Virus record (IMG/VR): IMGVR_UViG_3300045988_138129
Location: 1-25,037 of that record
Length of the DNA stretch: 25,037 bases
DNA from: a virus
Lineage: Duplodnaviria > Heunggongvirae > Uroviricota > Caudoviricetes
Direction: 5' to 3' (one strand)
Shown: piece after piece, positions 1 through 25,037 of the stretch
Layout: each line of letters opens with the position of its first letter
Position numbering within the stretch: the first letter of the stretch is position 1
The notes under the pieces: model-generated
Databases searched by the model: none
What the model saw: the letters and a program-made list of their open reading frames with translations, nothing else
What the model was told of the DNA's origin: nothing
Made by a program: the position numbers and the translations under genes

Positions 1-105
1 CAAGGCTGGGACGGAAGTCACTGTCGTTCTCAAAATCGGTGGAGCTGCATGACAAAGTCATCGGGCATTATCTGAACATAAAACACTATCAATAAGTTGG
101 AGTCA

Positions 106-597
106 TTACCCGCGGATGCGGTGCTCAAGCCCGGCGCGATACCAGTGCAACTGATATTCGAAAGACTGCTCAAAGAAAATCTGCTCCAGCTTTTCGATAG
201 CCTCGTCACTGAAAAAATTCTTTTTCGGTTTGCGCCGCCCGCCTTTGTTGCGGTTAGCGATGTTCGGATTAAGGTCTGCCTCGTTGCCGGTCTGGCTGTA
301 GCGGTTTACCCGTGCCAGTCGTTCAATCTGGCGTCCGAGCAGGTCAATTTCCTTGAAGTCACCGCCGGTTTTCTGCGGTTTGATGATGAGCTGGGTCAGC
401 CGCGCTTCCAGACTCATTTCGACACGGCTGATGGGGGCAACGCTGTCCCAGCCGTCGCGCTGTTTCCAGCTCTGCACCGTCGGGCGTTTCATCTGCAACA
501 TGGCGGCAATCTGCGGCACGGAAAACCCCTGCCAGTACAGCAGCGCCGCCTGACGACGCGGGTCGTGTAAAAGAGTGGTGTCTGTGGTGATGGTCAT
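106..597 (-). CDS. P: Terminase ATPase (large) subunit gpP, N-terminal ~163 codons only; apparently truncated
   Basis: Translation MTITTDTTLLHDPRRQAALLYWQGFSVPQIAAMLQMKRPTVQSWKQRDGW... is the HTH-containing N-terminus of P2-family terminase ATPase. GAGG RBS 9 nt upstream of the ATG at 597. An in-frame TAA at 106-108 ends it far short of the ~590 aa expected, before any ATPase motif. Confidence 0.75.
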   Translation of the reverse strand: MTITTDTTLLHDPRRQAALLYWQGFSVPQIAAMLQMKRPTVQSWKQRDGWDSVAPISRVEMSLEARLTQLIIKPQKTGGDFKEIDLLGRQIERLARVNRYSQTGNEADLNPNIANRNKGGRRKPKKNFFSDEAIEKLEQIFFEQSFEYQLHWYRAGLEHRIRG

Positions 598-2760: not shown

Positions 2761-3510
2761 ATGACGAGTCCCGCACAGCGCCACATGATGCGGGTCTCGG
2801 CAGCGATGACCGCGCAGCGGGAAGCCGCCCCGCTGCGACATGCAACTGTCTATGAGCAGATGCTGGTTAAGCTCGCCGCAGACCAGCGCACACTGAAAGC
2901 GATTTATTCAAAAGAGCTGAAGGCCGCGAAAAAACGCGAACTGCTGCCGTTCTGGTTGCCGTGGGTGAACGGCGTGCTGGAGCAGGGCAAAGGTGCACAG
3001 GATGACATTCTGATGACGGTCATGCTGTGGCGTCTGGATACCGGCGATATTGCCGGTGCGCTGGAGATTGCCCGTTATGCCCTGAAGTACGGTCTGACCA
3101 TGCCGGGTAAACACCGCCGCACCCCGCCGTACATGTTCACCGAGGAGGTCGCGCTTGCGGCCATGCGTGCCCACGCTGCCGGTGAGTCTGTGGATACCCG
3201 CCTGCTGACGGAGACCCTTGAACTGACTGCCGCTGCTGACATGCCTGATGAAGTGCGCGCAAAGCTGCACAAAATCACCGGTCTGTTTCTGCGTGACGGT
3301 GGTGATGCCGCCGGTGCGCTGGCGCACCTGCAACGTGCGACACAGCTCGACTGTCAGGCAGGCGTCAAAAAAGAGATTGAACGACTGGAGCGGGAGCTGA
3401 AACCGAAGCCGGAGCCGCAGCCGCAGCCAAAAGCGGCCACCCGTACCCCGCGTAAGACCCGGAGCGTGACACCGGCAAAACGTGGACGCCCGAAAAAGAA
3501 AGCCAGTTAA
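2761..3510 (+). CDS. M: Terminase endonuclease (small) subunit gpM
   Basis: 249 aa, MTSPAQRHMMRVSAAMTAQREAAPLRHATVYEQMLVKLAADQRTLKAIY..., basic PKPEPQPQPK...RGRPKKK tail. Position and sequence match P2 gpM. Confidence 0.93.
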   Translation: MTSPAQRHMMRVSAAMTAQREAAPLRHATVYEQMLVKLAADQRTLKAIYSKELKAAKKRELLPFWLPWVNGVLEQGKGAQDDILMTVMLWRLDTGDIAGALEIARYALKYGLTMPGKHRRTPPYMFTEEVALAAMRAHAAGESVDTRLLTETLELTAAADMPDEVRAKLHKITGLFLRDGGDAAGALAHLQRATQLDCQAGVKKEIERLERELKPKPEPQPQPKAATRTPRKTRSVTPAKRGRPKKKAS

Positions 3511-6102: not shown

Positions 6103-6532
6103 TGCCGTCACGGTGCTGAAAACTAACCCCGATATGCTGCGGATATTCGTGGATAACGGGAGTATTGCCTCCACACTGGCGACGTCGCTGTCGTTCGAAA
6201 AGCGTTACACGCTCAATGTCATTGTGACCGGCTTTACCGGTGATTTTGACCTGCTCATCGTGCCGGTGCTGGCGTGGCTGCGGGAAAATCAGCCCGACAT
6301 CATGACCACCGACGAAGGCCAGAAAAAGGGCTTCACGTTTTATGCAGACATCAACAATGACAGCAGCTTTGATATCAGCATCAGCCTGATGCTGACCGAG
6401 CGCACGCTGGTCAGTGAGGTGGACGGCGCGCTGCATGTGAAGAATATCCCGGAACCTCCGCCGCCGGAGCCGGTCACCCGCCCGATGGAGCTTTATATCA
6501 ATGGCGAACTGGTGAGTAAGTGGGATGAATGA
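6065..6532 (+). CDS. R: Tail completion protein gpR
   Basis: 155 aa, MLKPDSLRRALTDAVTVLKTNPDMLRIFVDNGSIASTLATSLSFEKRYTLNVIVTGFTGDFD...; P2 gpR. Confidence 0.92.
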   Translation: MLKPDSLRRALTDAVTVLKTNPDMLRIFVDNGSIASTLATSLSFEKRYTLNVIVTGFTGDFDLLIVPVLAWLRENQPDIMTTDEGQKKGFTFYADINNDSSFDISISLMLTERTLVSEVDGALHVKNIPEPPPPEPVTRPMELYINGELVSKWDE

Positions 6533-7079: not shown

Positions 7080-8153
7080 TTACTTTCCATTTTTTAATGA
7101 ATTGATTAACGATGCTATTTGCTCAATGCCATCAAATGTAGATGGTATCTTATCATCGGATAGCATGATGTTTGAAAATACTACGTCTTCGAATTTTGAA
7201 AGCGCTTCCGGATTGTTTTTCCTTATCTCTGAGGAATAGTCGCTATAACTCTGAATGAACTGACAAAGGCTCTTTCTGAGTTCTATTTGCATAATCTGAG
7301 TTCGTAACGATATATGATTTAGCAGTACAACTCTAAAGTAATACATGAAAATCAATGTAACTGATGCAAAAGGTAGTGCTGACATAAAATATGTGGCAGC
7401 ATTTGTCGTTTCGAGAGCTGGTAATTTATGCATTCCATAGTATATCAGCGGGGAGGGAATGATTATAGCCAAGATGATAAGAGTTATTCTTGATAGCATG
7501 ATTTCACTTTCTTTCTTTTTGCCAAGTGAATTAAAGCCTTCAAACAATCCAACAAAATTAAATGCGACCTCATACCCTTTTAATGACTCTTTGATTGACT
7601 CTATTTTGGCATGTTGCTCCTTTAAGAAGGAGTCGCACTTTTCGAAAAATTGACGCCCTTCGTTTAAACTATCAATGTATTTTTTATATGTGTCAACATT
7701 GCTGGAGCTTAAAACTTCTTTAACCATTGCTAATGGCAGTTCTCTAAGAGAAAAGTCTATCTGTGCTCTGCTCCGCTCATCGAATTCATTATAGTTATAC
7801 AGAGCAAAATCCTTGATGGTTCTTAGTGGTGAAAAGTGAGACTCTATTTCCGGAGAGAGAATGCTTGGTTCAATGATAAATCTAAAAAAGCAAGTGAATA
7901 TAAGGTTGATGCTGTTGTTATCTTCTCCCTTTTCTCTTAAGAAACTTTTAAAGGTGTCGCCAATCATAGCAATGTTGTACTGGGATTTTTTGTCCCAATC
8001 TTCAGGGTTTTCGGAAATGAAGTTTATTGCTTGAGCAATTATTTTGTTTCTGCTTGATTCAAAGTTTGTGCCGGGAGTCAGCGTGTTCAAAAAGACCAGA
8101 TAATCTTTGAACAATTCTTTCATTGTTTCTGACGAGAAAAAGTAAGTACTCAT
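7080..8153 (-). CDS. Hypothetical two-TM membrane protein in the S-V accessory position; candidate abortive-infection or defense protein
   Basis: Uninterrupted minus-strand ORF, AT-rich by eye. Soluble N-terminal ~240 aa, two hydrophobic helices (LSRITLIILAIIIPSPLIYYG; AATYFMSALPFASVTLIFMYYFRVVLL), C-terminal ~85 aa tail. ATG at 8153 (MSTYFF...) gives 358 aa and avoids overlapping V; alternative starts are GTG at 8249 (389 aa, overlaps V) and ATG at 8123. Confidence 0.75.
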   Translation of the reverse strand: MSTYFFSSETMKELFKDYLVFLNTLTPGTNFESSRNKIIAQAINFISENPEDWDKKSQYNIAMIGDTFKSFLREKGEDNNSINLIFTCFFRFIIEPSILSPEIESHFSPLRTIKDFALYNYNEFDERSRAQIDFSLRELPLAMVKEVLSSSNVDTYKKYIDSLNEGRQFFEKCDSFLKEQHAKIESIKESLKGYEVAFNFVGLFEGFNSLGKKKESEIMLSRITLIILAIIIPSPLIYYGMHKLPALETTNAATYFMSALPFASVTLIFMYYFRVVLLNHISLRTQIMQIELRKSLCQFIQSYSDYSSEIRKNNPEALSKFEDVVFSNIMLSDDKIPSTFDGIEQIASLINSLKNGK

Positions 8154-13596: not shown

Positions 13597-15600
13597 ATGA
13601 TTATGAGTGAAAATGATACAACCCCAAAGAAGTCTACAAGCCAGGTTAACAAAGCGGTATTCTTTACATCTGCTTTGCTAATTTTCCTTCTTGTCGCCTT
13701 TGCCGCCGTATTCCCGGATGTCGCCGACAAAAATTTTAAACTACTTCAGCAACAAATCTTCACGAATGCCAGCTGGTTCTACATACTTGCTGTGGCCCTG
13801 ATTTTACTGAGCGTCACGTTCCTTGGACTCTCACGTTACGGTGATATAAAGCTGGGCCCAGACCATGCGCAGCCTGATTTCAGCTACCACTCCTGGTTCG
13901 CGATGCTTTTTTCGGCAGGGATGGGGATCGGCCTGATGTTCTTTGGCGTTGCCGAACCTGTGATGCATTATCTTTCGCCACCTGTCGGCACTCCAGAGAC
14001 CGTTGCGGCAGCGAAGGAAGCCATGCGCCTGACGTTCTTCCACTGGGGTCTGCACGCATGGGCAATTTATGCCATCGTGGCGCTGATTCTGGCCTTTTTC
14101 AGTTACCGTCACGGTCTGCCTTTAACGCTGCGTTCTGCGCTCTATCCCATTATCGGCGATCGCATTTACGGGCCTATAGGCCACGCGGTTGATATCTTCG
14201 CCGTGATAGGCACTGTCTTTGGCGTTGCAACATCGCTGGGTTACGGTGTATTGCAGGTGAATGCCGGTTTGAACCATCTTTTCGGCGTGCCCATCAATGA
14301 AACGGTACAGGTCATTTTGATCGTGGTCATCACGGGGTTAGCGACGATTTCGGTGGTGTCCGGCCTGGACAAGGGAATACGCATCCTGTCTGAGCTTAAT
14401 CTGGGCCTGGCGGTGTTGCTCCTGGCGCTGGTCTTGTGCCTGGGTCCCACTGTGCTTCTGCTGAAGTCATTTGTGGAAAATACGGGTGGTTATCTGTCGG
14501 AACTGGTGAGTAAAACGTTCAACCTTTACGCGTATGAACCCAAGTCGAGCAACTGGCTGGGGGGCTGGACATTATTATACTGGGGATGGTGGCTTTCATG
14601 GTCGCCGTTTGTAGGTATGTTCATTGCACGCGTTTCCCGCGGCAGGACAATTCGTGAGTTCGTGACTGGCGTGTTGTTTGTTCCCGCCGGCTTTACGCTC
14701 ATGTGGATGACGGTGTTTGGAAACAGCGCCATCTATCTCATCATGAACCAGGGCGCCACTGACCTCGCCAATACCGTTCAGCAGGATGTTGCGCTTGCCC
14801 TGTTTAATTTCCTGGAGCATTTCCCGTTCTCTTCCGTGCTGTCATTCATTGCAATGGCGATGGTCATCGTCTTCTTTGTAACGTCTGCTGATTCGGGGGC
14901 AATGGTTGTGGATACTCTGGCATCAGGTGGGGTGGCAAACACGCCCGTCTGGCAGCGAATTTTCTGGGCATTGCTCATGGGCGTTGTTGCTATTGCCCTG
15001 CTGATCGCAGGGGGGCTGAGTGCGTTGCAAACCGTAACGATAGCGAGTGCATTGCCCTTCTCAGTTATCTTATTAATATCCATATACGGACTGTTAAAAG
15101 CCCTGCGTCGGGATTTGACCAAGCGTGAAAGCCTTAGCATGGCGACTATTGCTCCTACGGCTGCACGTAACCCAATTCCTTGGCAGAGAAGGTTACGCAA
15201 TATCGCGTATTTGCCGAAGCGCTCTCTTGTGAAACGTTTTATGGACGACATTATCCAACCCGCCATGACGCTGGTTCAGGAGGAACTTAACAAGCAGGGA
15301 ACGATAAGCCACATCAGTGACGCCGCCGAGGATCGTATTCGCCTTGAAGTCGATTTGGGCAACGAGCTGAATTATATATATGAAGTGAGGCTTCGCGGGT
15401 ATAACTCACCGACCTTCGCGCTCGCTGCGCTGGATAATGATGAGCAGCAGAGTGAACAACATCGATATTATCGCGCTGAAGTCTATCTCAAAGAGGGCGG
15501 CCAAAATTATGATGTAATGGGCTGGAATCAGGAACAGCTGATTAATGACATACTGGACCAGTACGAAAAACACCTGCACTTCCTGCATCTGGTTCGTTAA
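13597..15600 (+). CDS. BCCT-family transporter, BetT-like (choline/betaine-type), full length with long C-terminal cytoplasmic domain
   Basis: 667 aa, ~12 hydrophobic helices. BCCT signature GWTLLYWGWWLSWSPFVGMFIARVSRGRTIREF. Conserved blocks resembling BetT at both ends (YGDIKLGP...AMLFSAGMGIGLMFFGVAEPV; QEQLINDILDQYEKHLHFLHL). Alternative start ATG at 13603. Confidence 0.85.
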   Translation: MIMSENDTTPKKSTSQVNKAVFFTSALLIFLLVAFAAVFPDVADKNFKLLQQQIFTNASWFYILAVALILLSVTFLGLSRYGDIKLGPDHAQPDFSYHSWFAMLFSAGMGIGLMFFGVAEPVMHYLSPPVGTPETVAAAKEAMRLTFFHWGLHAWAIYAIVALILAFFSYRHGLPLTLRSALYPIIGDRIYGPIGHAVDIFAVIGTVFGVATSLGYGVLQVNAGLNHLFGVPINETVQVILIVVITGLATISVVSGLDKGIRILSELNLGLAVLLLALVLCLGPTVLLLKSFVENTGGYLSELVSKTFNLYAYEPKSSNWLGGWTLLYWGWWLSWSPFVGMFIARVSRGRTIREFVTGVLFVPAGFTLMWMTVFGNSAIYLIMNQGATDLANTVQQDVALALFNFLEHFPFSSVLSFIAMAMVIVFFVTSADSGAMVVDTLASGGVANTPVWQRIFWALLMGVVAIALLIAGGLSALQTVTIASALPFSVILLISIYGLLKALRRDLTKRESLSMATIAPTAARNPIPWQRRLRNIAYLPKRSLVKRFMDDIIQPAMTLVQEELNKQGTISHISDAAEDRIRLEVDLGNELNYIYEVRLRGYNSPTFALAALDNDEQQSEQHRYYRAEVYLKEGGQNYDVMGWNQEQLINDILDQYEKHLHFLHLVR

Positions 15601-15663: not shown

Positions 15664-16941
15664 ATGATTTCACGCTGGAAATGGATGCTGAAGCAGACAT
15701 TTAAAAAACTATGGTTCAGGGCAACGTTATTCGCAATTGTCGCAATAATAACGGCCCTTTTATCAATTCTTTTTAAATCAATGATACCTGAGTCGGTTTC
15801 CGTGAAGGTTGGTGCGGAAGCAGTCGATAACATTCTGAACATACTGGCATCGAGTATGCTGGCAGTGACCACATTTTCGCTGAGCATCATGGTCACAGCC
15901 TACGGTTCAGCCACTACTAATGTGACTCCCAGAGCTACTCGTTTAGTTGTTGAAGACGTCACCACACAAAATGTACTGGCCACCTTCATCGGTTCTTTTC
16001 TCTTCAGTCTGGTAGGGATTATTGCCCTCAATATGGGAGCTTATGGAGAAAGGGGGAGAGTCATTTTATTCATTGTAACACTGGTTGTCATTGCCTTAAT
16101 CCTCATCACATTGCTTCGCTGGATACAGCATTTGACCTCTCTGGGGAGGGTTGGTGAGACAACGGCAAAAGTAGAACAGGCGGCCATCGAAACATTTATT
16201 GCGAGAGCAAGAAATCCCTGTCTCGGCGGATATCCATGGCTTGAGAACAATGAACAGCCGAAAGGAACGGTTGCAGTTTATCCGAAAAAGATTGGCTATG
16301 TTGAATATGTTGATATGGTGAAACTCAGCAAGCTGCTGACCAATGATCCCCGTCATGTATACCTCGTGGCGCAGCCGGGCAGTTTCATACATCCGTCCAC
16401 GCCAGTTTTGTACCTGAGTCAGGGCCAGGAGTCATCAATCAGCACCGATTTACTTGAGACGATTATTGTCTCGGATGTACGTTCATTTGCTCAGGACCCC
16501 CGATTTTGTCTTAGCGTCATGGCCGAAATAGCCTGCCGAGCCCTTTCCCCCGCAGTGAACGATCCTGGAACCGCCATTGATGTCATTGGCAGAGGTGTAC
16601 GTATACTTTCCGCTTACGCGCAGAATAAATCTGATGAAATAGAAGTGAAATATCCTTCTGTACATGTTGCACCACTTCAGAATAACGATCTACTTGAAGA
16701 CTTTTTCTCACCTGTTGCGCGCGATGGTGCCAGTATGAGGGAAATTCAGATAAGGGTCCTTAAAGGACTGTCGATGCTGAGTAAGGGTTGGCCTGGAATT
16801 TTTGCTGAAGCCGCACAAACCCTAGCATTTGAAACATTAGAGCATGCTACTCGTGCTGACCATATAGATTCTGACAGATATCTAATAAAATCAATTTATT
16901 ATAATTTATTTAGTGGCGAAGATTCTAATAAAAAACCATAG
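15664..16941 (+). CDS. Membrane protein with four N-terminal TM helices and a large cytoplasmic domain; DUF2254-like (family assignment from memory, uncertain)
   Basis: GAGGG RBS before the ATG at 15664 (MISRWKWMLKQ...); the ORF-track start at 15649 is less likely. Four hydrophobic helices in the first ~160 aa. Conserved-looking block SFAQDPRFCLSVMAEIACRALSPAVNDPGTAIDVIGRG. Confidence 0.75.
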   Translation: MISRWKWMLKQTFKKLWFRATLFAIVAIITALLSILFKSMIPESVSVKVGAEAVDNILNILASSMLAVTTFSLSIMVTAYGSATTNVTPRATRLVVEDVTTQNVLATFIGSFLFSLVGIIALNMGAYGERGRVILFIVTLVVIALILITLLRWIQHLTSLGRVGETTAKVEQAAIETFIARARNPCLGGYPWLENNEQPKGTVAVYPKKIGYVEYVDMVKLSKLLTNDPRHVYLVAQPGSFIHPSTPVLYLSQGQESSISTDLLETIIVSDVRSFAQDPRFCLSVMAEIACRALSPAVNDPGTAIDVIGRGVRILSAYAQNKSDEIEVKYPSVHVAPLQNNDLLEDFFSPVARDGASMREIQIRVLKGLSMLSKGWPGIFAEAAQTLAFETLEHATRADHIDSDRYLIKSIYYNLFSGEDSNKKP

Positions 16942-17081: not shown

Positions 17082-17891
17082 TCACTTAATTATTGGATAA
17101 CTCACACAAGTATGACCGTTGCTTATCGCATACATTTGGTTTCCCTTAAGATTTACAAATGGAAATGTCGTATACTCATAATTTATAGAGGTCATATTAA
17201 ATGTAAGGAATTTATCTTCAAGTTCTAATTTTGTAGAGTGGGCAGGGTATGTTCCTTCATTTCTCATTGTGATAATAAAACCGATAGGAAAAAAATGTAA
17301 AGCACAAATAAATGCCACATGTCCTTCGTTCATAAATGCTACACTTTGAGCGGATATGTGCATTCTGTGTGGGTAAAACCAGTAGTAAATATCATGAGTT
17401 TCCTCAAAACTTGAATTTTTACCCAAAACATAATCCTTTAAAGGTGTATAGAAGGGGCTATCTACGGGTTCTTTTTTACAATCTTCAACTGAAGTTGCTG
17501 ATAGCACGTGCCCAATCATAGCCTTAGTGAAAGATATGCTATCAAAAGGTATTCTAATGAATGGATATACATTCATACCATTCATATATCGACTTAACTG
17601 TTCTTTAAAGGACTTTGTTACATTTTCAATTGCAACATCGAGCCCACCTAATACCTTATTGTTACAGTGGCTGCAAATGGTTCTGAAATAAGAGCCATTT
17701 TTAGCATTTAATGGTTTAACTGGTTCCTGAATACCAAAAAATTCGCTAACTGTTTTCTGCAAAACAGGGCCTAAGGTTATGGCGCACTTTGGAGGAACAT
17801 GATCTTTTGTGAGCAAGCCATATTTCCCACAAATATTGCAATAACCTTCAGTAATGCCATTGTGCTTCCATCGTTCACTAATTTTCGTCAT
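17082..17891 (-). CDS. HNH endonuclease-domain protein (N-terminal HNH motif, C-terminal domain of unknown function)
   Basis: 269 aa, AT-rich, GAGGGA RBS before the ATG at 17891. Motif C-N-I-C-G-x9-D-H-V-P-P-K ... N-x12-C-S-H-C-N-N-K fits the CxxC...(D/H)H..P...N...CxxC(N)xK HNH zinc-finger nuclease pattern. Confidence 0.78.
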   Translation of the reverse strand: MTKISERWKHNGITEGYCNICGKYGLLTKDHVPPKCAITLGPVLQKTVSEFFGIQEPVKPLNAKNGSYFRTICSHCNNKVLGGLDVAIENVTKSFKEQLSRYMNGMNVYPFIRIPFDSISFTKAMIGHVLSATSVEDCKKEPVDSPFYTPLKDYVLGKNSSFEETHDIYYWFYPHRMHISAQSVAFMNEGHVAFICALHFFPIGFIITMRNEGTYPAHSTKLELEDKFLTFNMTSINYEYTTFPFVNLKGNQMYAISNGHTCVSYPIIK

Positions 17892-23368: not shown

Positions 23369-24531
23369 TGCTGGACGCGCTGACATTTGATGCAGGTAGT
23401 ACGCTGACGCCGGATTACATGCTGATGCTCGACAGCAGGGATATTACCGGCAATATCAGCGACCGTCTGATGAGCATGACCCTGACGGATAACCGGGGCT
23501 TTGAGGCTGACCAGCTTGATATTGAACTGAACGATGCCGACGGGCAGGTCGGGCTGCCGGTTCGTGGCGCTGTCCTGACGGTGTATATCGGCTGGAAAGG
23601 TTTTGCCCTGGTATGCAAAGGGAAATTCACCGTTGATGAGGTTGAACACCGGGGCGCGCCGGATGTGGTCACCATCCGCGCCCGGAGTGCAGATTTCCGC
23701 GGGACGCTCAATTCCCGCCGTGAAGGCTCCTGGCATGACACCACGCTCGGTGCGATTGTTGAGGCGATAGCCTCCCGTAACAGGCTGGAAGCCAGTGTCG
23801 CTCCGTCACTGGCCGGAATTAAAATCCCGCACATCGACCAGTCGCAGGAGTCTGATGCGAAATTCCTGACCCGTCTTGCAGAACGCAACGGCGGTGAGGT
23901 CTCGGTAAAAATGGGAAAACTGTTGTTTCTCAAAGCGGGGCAGGGGGTGACGGCCAGTGGTAAAAAAATCCCGCAGGTCACCATAACCCGCAGCGACGGC
24001 GACCGCCATCATTTTGCGATTGCTGACCGTGGAGCCTATACCGGCGTAACAGCAAAGTGGTTACACACCAAAGACCCGAAGCCACAAAAGCAGAAGGTAA
24101 AACTGAAACGCAAAAAGAAAGAGAAACACCTGCGCGCACTGGAGCACCCGAAAGCGAAACCGGTCACGCAGAAGAAAACGCCAAAAGTACCGGAAGCGCG
24201 CGAAGGTGAATACATGGCAGGTGAGGCTGACAACGTTTTTGCCCTGACCACGGTATATGCCACGAAAGCGCAGGCCATGCGCGCCGCTCAGGCGAAGTGG
24301 GATAAGCTGCAACGGGGCGTTGCGGAGTTTTCCATCAGTCTGGCTACTGGTCGGGCAGATATTTACACGGAAACGCCGGTCAAAGTATCAGGCTTTAAGC
24401 GCGTCATAGACGAGCAGGACTGGACAATCACTAAGGTGACACATTTTCTGAATAATAGCGGCTTCACGACGTCCTTAGAGCTTGAGGTCAGGCTTTCTGA
24501 TGTGGAGTACGAAACAGAAGATGATGAGTGA
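23368..24531 (+). CDS. D: Tail protein / late control protein gpD
   Basis: 387 aa, MLDALTFDAGSTLTPDYMLMLDSRDITGNISDRLMSMTLTDNRGFEADQLDIELND...; start overlaps the U stop (TAATG). Confidence 0.93.
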   Translation: MLDALTFDAGSTLTPDYMLMLDSRDITGNISDRLMSMTLTDNRGFEADQLDIELNDADGQVGLPVRGAVLTVYIGWKGFALVCKGKFTVDEVEHRGAPDVVTIRARSADFRGTLNSRREGSWHDTTLGAIVEAIASRNRLEASVAPSLAGIKIPHIDQSQESDAKFLTRLAERNGGEVSVKMGKLLFLKAGQGVTASGKKIPQVTITRSDGDRHHFAIADRGAYTGVTAKWLHTKDPKPQKQKVKLKRKKKEKHLRALEHPKAKPVTQKKTPKVPEAREGEYMAGEADNVFALTTVYATKAQAMRAAQAKWDKLQRGVAEFSISLATGRADIYTETPVKVSGFKRVIDEQDWTITKVTHFLNNSGFTTSLELEVRLSDVEYETEDDE

Positions 24532-24611
24532 TGTTTTGTTTTATCTGTTTGTTTTATAAGGGTAAATTAACTAAAATGGCACCATCAACAAAACCGGAAG
24601 AGGTGCTCGCG

Positions 24612-24830
24612 ATGTTTCATTGTCCTTTATGCCAGCATGCCGCACATGCGCGTACAAGTCGCTATATCACTGACACGACAAAAGAGCGTTATCACCAGTG
24701 TCAGAACGTGAATTGCAGCGCCACGTTCATCACTTATGAGTCGGTACAGAGATACATCGTGAAGCCGGGAGAAGTCCACGCAGTAAGGCCGCACCCGTTG
24801 CCGTCAGGGCAGCAAATTATGTGGATGTAA
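24612..24830 (+). CDS. ogr: Late gene transcriptional activator Ogr (C4 zinc-finger protein)
   Basis: 72 aa, MFHCPLCQHAAHARTSRYITDTTKERYHQCQNVNCSATFITYESVQRYIVKPGEVHAVRPHPLPSGQQIMWM with CxxC...CxxxxC zinc-binding cysteines. GGAAGAGG RBS before the ATG at 24612. The ORF-track start at 24528 is an upstream extension. Confidence 0.93.
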   Translation: MFHCPLCQHAAHARTSRYITDTTKERYHQCQNVNCSATFITYESVQRYIVKPGEVHAVRPHPLPSGQQIMWM

Positions 24831-24842
24831 TTAGAAACAGGA

Positions 24843-24869
24843 AGCCCCTCAGTCGAGGGGCTTTTTTTG
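24843..24869 (+). terminator. Rho-independent terminator after ogr
   Basis: AGCCCCTC-agtc-GAGGGGCT hairpin followed by TTTTTTT, 12 nt after the ogr stop. Confidence 0.85.
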
Positions 24870-24932
24870 TCGATGTGGTCAATGTGTGGACGTGACCAGA
24901 AATAAATCCTTTTATTTCAATTTGTTGTACGT

Positions 24933-24959
24933 AAAAAATAAGCCCGTGTAAGGGAGATT
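24933..24959. other. att core-like 27-nt sequence (prophage attachment-site junction)
   Basis: AAAAAATAAGCCCGTGTAAGGGAGATT, ~100 bp after ogr, which is where att lies in P2. Matches the P2 att core as I recall it (from memory, not verified). Only 78 nt of flank remain in the window. Confidence 0.6.
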
Positions 24960-25037
24960 ACACAGGCTAAGGAGGTGGTTCTTGGTACAGCTAGCATTTT
25001 ATGGGTTATGTTTTTCAGCGAAACGGATGATAACCTT

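Follow-up and report, generated by a model that had tools for sequence, protein, structure and literature searches.

The question raised by this locus is where the prophage ends and what lies beyond its last gene. The window, i.e., the whole stretch of 25,037 nucleotides analyzed here (positions 1 to 25,037 of the IMG/VR record IMGVR_UViG_3300045988_138129), had been read in an original prediction as carrying a 27-nt att core-like sequence about 100 bp after ogr, in the place where att sits in P2. The sequence is indeed there: AAAAAATAAGCCCGTGTAAGGGAGATT occupies positions 24933–24959 on the plus strand, its first base lying 102 nt beyond the end of the ogr stop codon, and it is present as a single copy in the window even when up to three mismatches are allowed, with no occurrence expected on the basis of shuffled sequences. 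The resemblance to a core turned out to be full identity, as the 27-mer matches 27 of 27 positions of the P2 attP core, an annotated feature of AF063097 (24356–24382), and it is also the sequence quoted as the locI/attP core in PMC3931495.

The similarity to P2 stops where the core stops. In a megablast search of positions 24530–25037 against phage genomes, P2 aligned to query positions 1–430 only, corresponding to window 24530–24959 (97.2%), and in a three-way alignment the window followed P2 through the last core base, 24959, and the E. coli chromosome from there on; past the core P2 goes on with the Cox sites, the P′ arm and int, none of which follow in the window. Seen from the unoccupied host site, similarity starts at 24933, and more than 5,400 E. 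coli chromosomes match the last 78 nt of the window. The exact point of crossover within the 27 bp is hidden by the identity of phage and host there. Since the flank past the core is host DNA and not int, the element is integrated and the junction is the ogr-proximal one, which we take to be the junction named attR in P2 usage. The identity of the sequence, its exact boundaries and the membership of the flank in cyaR are direct observations, nothing in the evidence contradicts the attR reading, and we consider it nearly certain that positions 24842–25037 represent the attR of a P2 prophage at locI, the preferred E. coli site, which corresponds to the 3′ end of cyaR (Table 1). The prophage end previously placed at about 24959, with host DNA beyond it, is upheld; int, which had been named as a possible continuation of the flank, was looked for and E. 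coli cyaR was found in its place. The original prediction had not recognized cyaR in the host DNA, where the gene lies on the minus strand with the core as its 3′ end.

Table 1. Coordinates of the features discussed in the text (window positions).
Feature	Position	Strand	Remarks
Gene P, terminase ATPase, truncated	111–597	-	first 162 codons kept, then stop codons of IS1
347-aa gene, P2 orf30 position	7080–8123	-	between virion morphogenesis gene (S) and baseplate gene V
BCCT betaine/carnitine/choline transporter	13603–15600	+	Pfam, 663 bits
DUF2254 membrane protein	15664–16941	+	Pfam, 311 bits
269-aa protein	17082–17891	-	no Pfam family found
ogr	24612–24830	+	late-gene activator, last prophage gene; annotated ogr/ogrK in matching records
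Intrinsic terminator of ogr and F operon	24842–24869	+	9-bp G+C-rich stem, 4-nt loop, T7 run
P arm	24870–24897	.	two direct Int arm-type sites; aligns to P2 "Int, P arm" 24293–24320, invariant
Predicted IHF region of attP, kept in attR	24901–24934	.	aligns to P2 "IHF" 24324–24357, one A-to-G difference
27-bp att core	24933–24959	.	sequence common to phage and host; strand exchange somewhere within
cyaR (ryeE), host Hfq-dependent sRNA gene, complete	24933–25019	-	last 27 nt are the att core
cyaR intrinsic terminator	24933–24968	-	11-bp stem and 6-nt loop (24941–24968) plus tail UAUUUUUU (24933–24940)
Sequence upstream of cyaR start, first 18 nt	25020–25037	-	from K-12 alignment; promoter (CRP-dependent in CyaR) cut by window edge

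The assignment of the host side to cyaR relies on a covariance match and on alignment to the K-12 gene. The Rfam family RF00112 (CyaR/RyeE) was matched on the minus strand at 24936–25021 with 95.5 bits vs. a gathering score of 47 (E = 1.2e-19), the match covering the full model (positions 1–85 of 85), and the 87-nt K-12 cyaR (b4438) aligned base for base to the gene in the window except for one G-to-A change, its annotated 3′ end falling where the att core begins. The terminator of the gene, delimited by a terminator scan, an RNA fold and the structure line of the Rfam match, is divided between the core and the chromosome: the core provides the U-tail (24933–24940), the 3′ stem arm (24941–24951), the loop (24952–24957) and the two loop-proximal nucleotides of the 5′ arm (24958–24959), and the other 9 nt of that arm (24960–24968) are host-only. 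As the core is the last 27 nt of cyaR, the phage copy swaps in base for base and cyaR is therefore intact. Beyond cyaR, related genomes continue with yegQ/trhP, yegP and baeR, the overall order being ogrK, (cyaR), yegQ-yegP-baeR.

This copy of cyaR also carries a private base, a T at window position 24982 (C-to-T, corresponding to G38A in the CyaR RNA). No complete E. coli genome with the locus (0 of 5,424) has the variant, and exact-pattern scans of the GTDB species representatives, of IMG/VR and of the JGI metagenomes did not find it either; the wild-type cyaR pattern, run as positive control, gave 87 IMG/VR matches. G38A breaks a pair in the small central hairpin of the RNA, AGGA/UCCU around an ACCACC loop (marked "v", a non-standard pair, in the Rfam match), and this hairpin is missing from the minimum-free-energy fold of the present copy while it is found in that of K-12. 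Given a score far above the threshold, the copy is to be regarded as a variant within RF00112 and not as excluded from it. The change may be genuine or may stem from a sequencing error; if genuine, the loss of the central hairpin could alter the regulation of CyaR targets.

On the phage side, the elements preceding the core correspond to those of P2. The encoded Ogr is identical to P2 Ogr over 72 of 72 amino acids, and its gene is followed by the hairpin AAGCCCCTC-AGTC-GAGGGGCTT and a T-run, which align to P2 24265–24288, annotated as "rho-independent terminator for ogr transcript and F operon"; the ogr terminator of the original prediction is thereby substantiated, and the hairpin was also picked up in a hairpin scan and folds with −19.3 kcal/mol (z = −4.3). 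In the P arm, the predicted Int arm-type repeats TGTGGTCA (24874–24881) and TGTGGACG (24885–24892) both fit tgTGGaCa, the consensus of P2-type arm sites (PMC3448106), and the arm is kept in nearly all of 85 IMG/VR junctions, the variants listed being 1–2 bases off in the second repeat. On the grounds of established P2 biology, Int and IHF would be expected to bind at this junction.

Among P2-type prophages at cyaR, the 13 nt to the left of the core (24920–24932) exist in two main versions, ...CAATTTGTTGTACGT in P2 and in the window vs. ...CATTGTATTACGCGT in the K-12 type, and the fact that many phage alignments end at window position 24919 is probably due to this variable patch. Three further Rfam candidates between 24804 and 24906, Phe_leader, isrJ and STnc100, were rejected, as they reached 18–23 bits, far under their thresholds, and matched the ogr terminator hairpin only. 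A promoter scan of 24400–25037 returned no sigma-70-like promoter, this being a simple scan that missed the ogr promoter annotated there in P2 and so carries no weight here.

The second att copy lies outside the window, and the prophage of E. coli NZ_CP062901.1, to which window positions 111–25000 are 100.0% identical, was used as a proxy for attL. In this prophage the core occurs twice in direct orientation, at a distance of 34,429 bp. The left copy adjoins the chromosome on the yegR side and is followed by the P2 P′ arm and by int, whose product is identical to P2 Int at 336 of 337 positions. When the host arm of this attL was joined to the host arm of the attR in the window, the rebuilt attB measured 208 nt, and many complete E. 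coli genomes have it without interruption at 99.5% identity; the one mismatch over its 208 bases fits the cyaR substitution that the query contains. Both the second core copy and the uninterrupted empty site were directly observed, and such a rebuilt site is what is classically seen when insertion has been precise and site-specific. Of 5426 complete E. coli genomes, 1130 have ogr, att and cyaR contiguous, remnants and full prophages counted together, and in the IMG/VR prophage contigs all junctions (85/85) show the P2-type P arm, the core and cyaR.

The alternative that survives best is that the junction belongs to a short cryptic remnant of the type seen in K-12, which we take to comprise the end of D, ogr and attR only, and not to a prophage. 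The composition of the K-12 element is drawn in part from its annotation and from PMC3931495, where the locI core and the K-12 remnant occupying locI are described. The junction sequence is of the same kind as in K-12, and roughly one complete E. coli genome in five carries ogr-att-cyaR, a proportion in which remnants and full prophages are mixed; the window, however, carries the P2 late region in full, P through ogr, and is colinear with a complete 34.4-kb prophage for 24.9 kb, and although the element may still be defective on account of an IS1, a remnant of the K-12 type appears very unlikely. It is hardly credible that the DNA derives from unintegrated phage, in which case the site would be attP, continuing into the P′ arm and int. 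The sequence up to 24959 is identical in attP and attR, and the left half alone therefore cannot decide, but after the core P2 reads TAGGGTGTCACCAG... and the window ACACAGGCTAAGG..., which is cyaR, and the flank in the window resembles neither the P2 Cox sites nor int. The use of a secondary P2 site with an imperfect core (such as locH), or a chance match to the core, is improbable in the extreme, for although P2 Int accepts many core mismatches and has more than 10 sites in use (PMC3931495), the core is conserved at 27 of 27 positions with zero chance matches expected, and the flank is the cyaR/yegQ locus, home of the K-12 remnant described as occupying locI.

While the attR of a P2 prophage thus marks the right boundary, the left edge of the window is of a different nature. 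The truncated P had been thought to frame the element together with the junction, a view that does not hold, since P is cut at position 111 by the end of an IS1 and relatives extend about 9.6 kb farther to the left. Window positions 1–110 are the right end of IS1, with an exact 45-mer of K-12 IS1A and 2 mismatches over 110 nt, closing with ...GGAGTCATTACC, and all E. coli alignments of the window begin at 111. P is intact in the closest relatives, and in a near-identical intact prophage the additional sequence comprises Q, the early genes and int and ends at attL, next to yegR. An exact-pattern scan of genome contigs for the IS1/P junction gave no match. The interruption of P by IS1 suggests that the prophage is defective or rearranged in its source genome, where the element may have entered by simple insertion or be associated with a deletion, both being compatible with the window; IS1 in gene P does not touch int or cox, and the left end of the prophage is located beyond the window.

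Within the late region, a block of cargo genes, at the Z/fun position of P2, separates the tail-fibre assembly gene from the sheath gene, and the transporter encoded there is an unusual passenger for this hotspot. None of the four cargo genes listed in Table 1 matched a PADLOC defence system, and the product of the gene at the orf30 position had no Pfam or PADLOC match.

The formation of the junction can be envisaged according to the integration biology of P2, with its Int and its architecture of arm and core sites (PMC3448106). P2 Int, a tyrosine recombinase, would act with IHF to pair attP and attB, both carrying the same 27 bp, the order of elements in attP being a P arm with two arm-type Int sites, the IHF site, the 27-bp core, the Cox sites and the P′ arm. 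Int dimers would occupy the core and arm sites, IHF would bend the P arm, and strand exchange by Int would take place inside the common 27 bp. One product, attL, would consist of the yegR side, the core, the P′ arm and int, and the Cox sites together with int would accordingly pass to attL, outside the window; the other product, the attR contained in the window, would consist of ogr, its terminator, the P arm, the IHF site, the core and the body of cyaR. In the process the phage copy of the core would replace the part of cyaR that reaches from the U-tail up to the two loop-proximal bases of the 5′ arm of its terminator, leaving the gene intact. The chemistry of the recombination, the exact position of the crossover and the expression of CyaR from this copy are inferred.

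The junction itself brings no new biology. The RNA gene cyaR was listed as an insertion site of P2-type prophages in the E. coli W genome paper, with the K-12 "ogr-D′" placed there (PMC3032704), and the K-12 remnant is said to sit at locI; the P2 attR at locI/cyaR is therefore already known. In K-12 the annotated order is trhP, cyaR, "cryptic prophage PR-X", ogrK, yegZ (a D fragment) and yegR. The attR of P2 at locI in E. coli C lysogens and the ogrK-yegZ element PR-X of K-12 share with the window the core, the P arm, the IHF site, ogr and the terminator, as well as the host flank, consisting of cyaR and then yegQ/trhP. Differences concern the extent of the element, 0.6 kb for the K-12 remnant vs. 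at least 25 kb for the prophage in the window, and a few positions, the window being one base off P2 in the IHF region, having one extra T in the terminator run, and carrying the private G-to-A change in cyaR with respect to both the P2 attR and the K-12 remnant.

Comparable solutions are known from other phages. Phage 186 (tRNA-Ile), HP1 (tRNA-Leu) and Fels-2/SopE-phi (ssrA) carry, as in the window, the 3′ end of a structured RNA by which the gene is rebuilt (PMC3448106), whereas in contrast to these tRNA and tmRNA sites the target in the window is an Hfq-dependent sRNA, and the duplicated part is the 3′ half of a terminator with no tRNA-like fold. The ends of sRNA genes serve as attB, like that of cyaR, also at rybB for P2-type prophages in E. 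coli W, B and Crooks (PMC3032704, Table 2) and for a prophage at the sdsR locus of Salmonella (PMC3333887), but the rybB and sdsR sites involve other core sequences and other integrase specificities. The attP and attR of lambda resemble those of P2 in relying on a tyrosine integrase, on arm- and core-type sites with an IHF bend between them, and on a short core common with the host; unlike in lambda, the P2 core measures 27 bp and the excision factor is Cox, whose sites on the P′ side go to attL, outside the window.

A further aspect concerns the origin of the host site. In empty sites, in K-12 (3313–3489 of the extracted K-12 locus) and in the attL of NZ_CP062901.1, the host arm beside the core contains a stretch of about 40 nt resembling a decayed P arm. 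On the host side of the NZ_CP062901.1 attL (6480–6520 of the extracted locus) it comprises an exact 15-mer, TCGATGTGGTCAATG, which includes one putative Int arm-type repeat, followed by GTGACCAG, and a hairpin precedes it at the position of the ogr terminator. The local alignment score of the stretch was 21 vs. 8.6 ± 1.3 in shuffles, a value of 21 being reached by none of the 2000 shuffles. The left edge of the K-12 remnant has kept a partial core, AAAAAAATAAGCCCGTGTA. We raise tentatively, and consider somewhat unlikely, the possibility that the "bacterial" attB at cyaR goes back to an older P2-like prophage and is its scar.

Overall, the right boundary of the prophage is fixed at 24933–24959, and integration took place at the classical P2 site. 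The value of this result is chiefly for annotation, as the last 87 bases before the window edge are a conserved host sRNA gene, cyaR, and not an anonymous flank. The junction represents a clean textbook case in which the phage carries the 3′ end of an RNA gene and the gene survives the insertion. If the attB at cyaR were indeed the scar of an older prophage, the terminator end of a core sRNA would have been repeatedly overwritten by phage copies.
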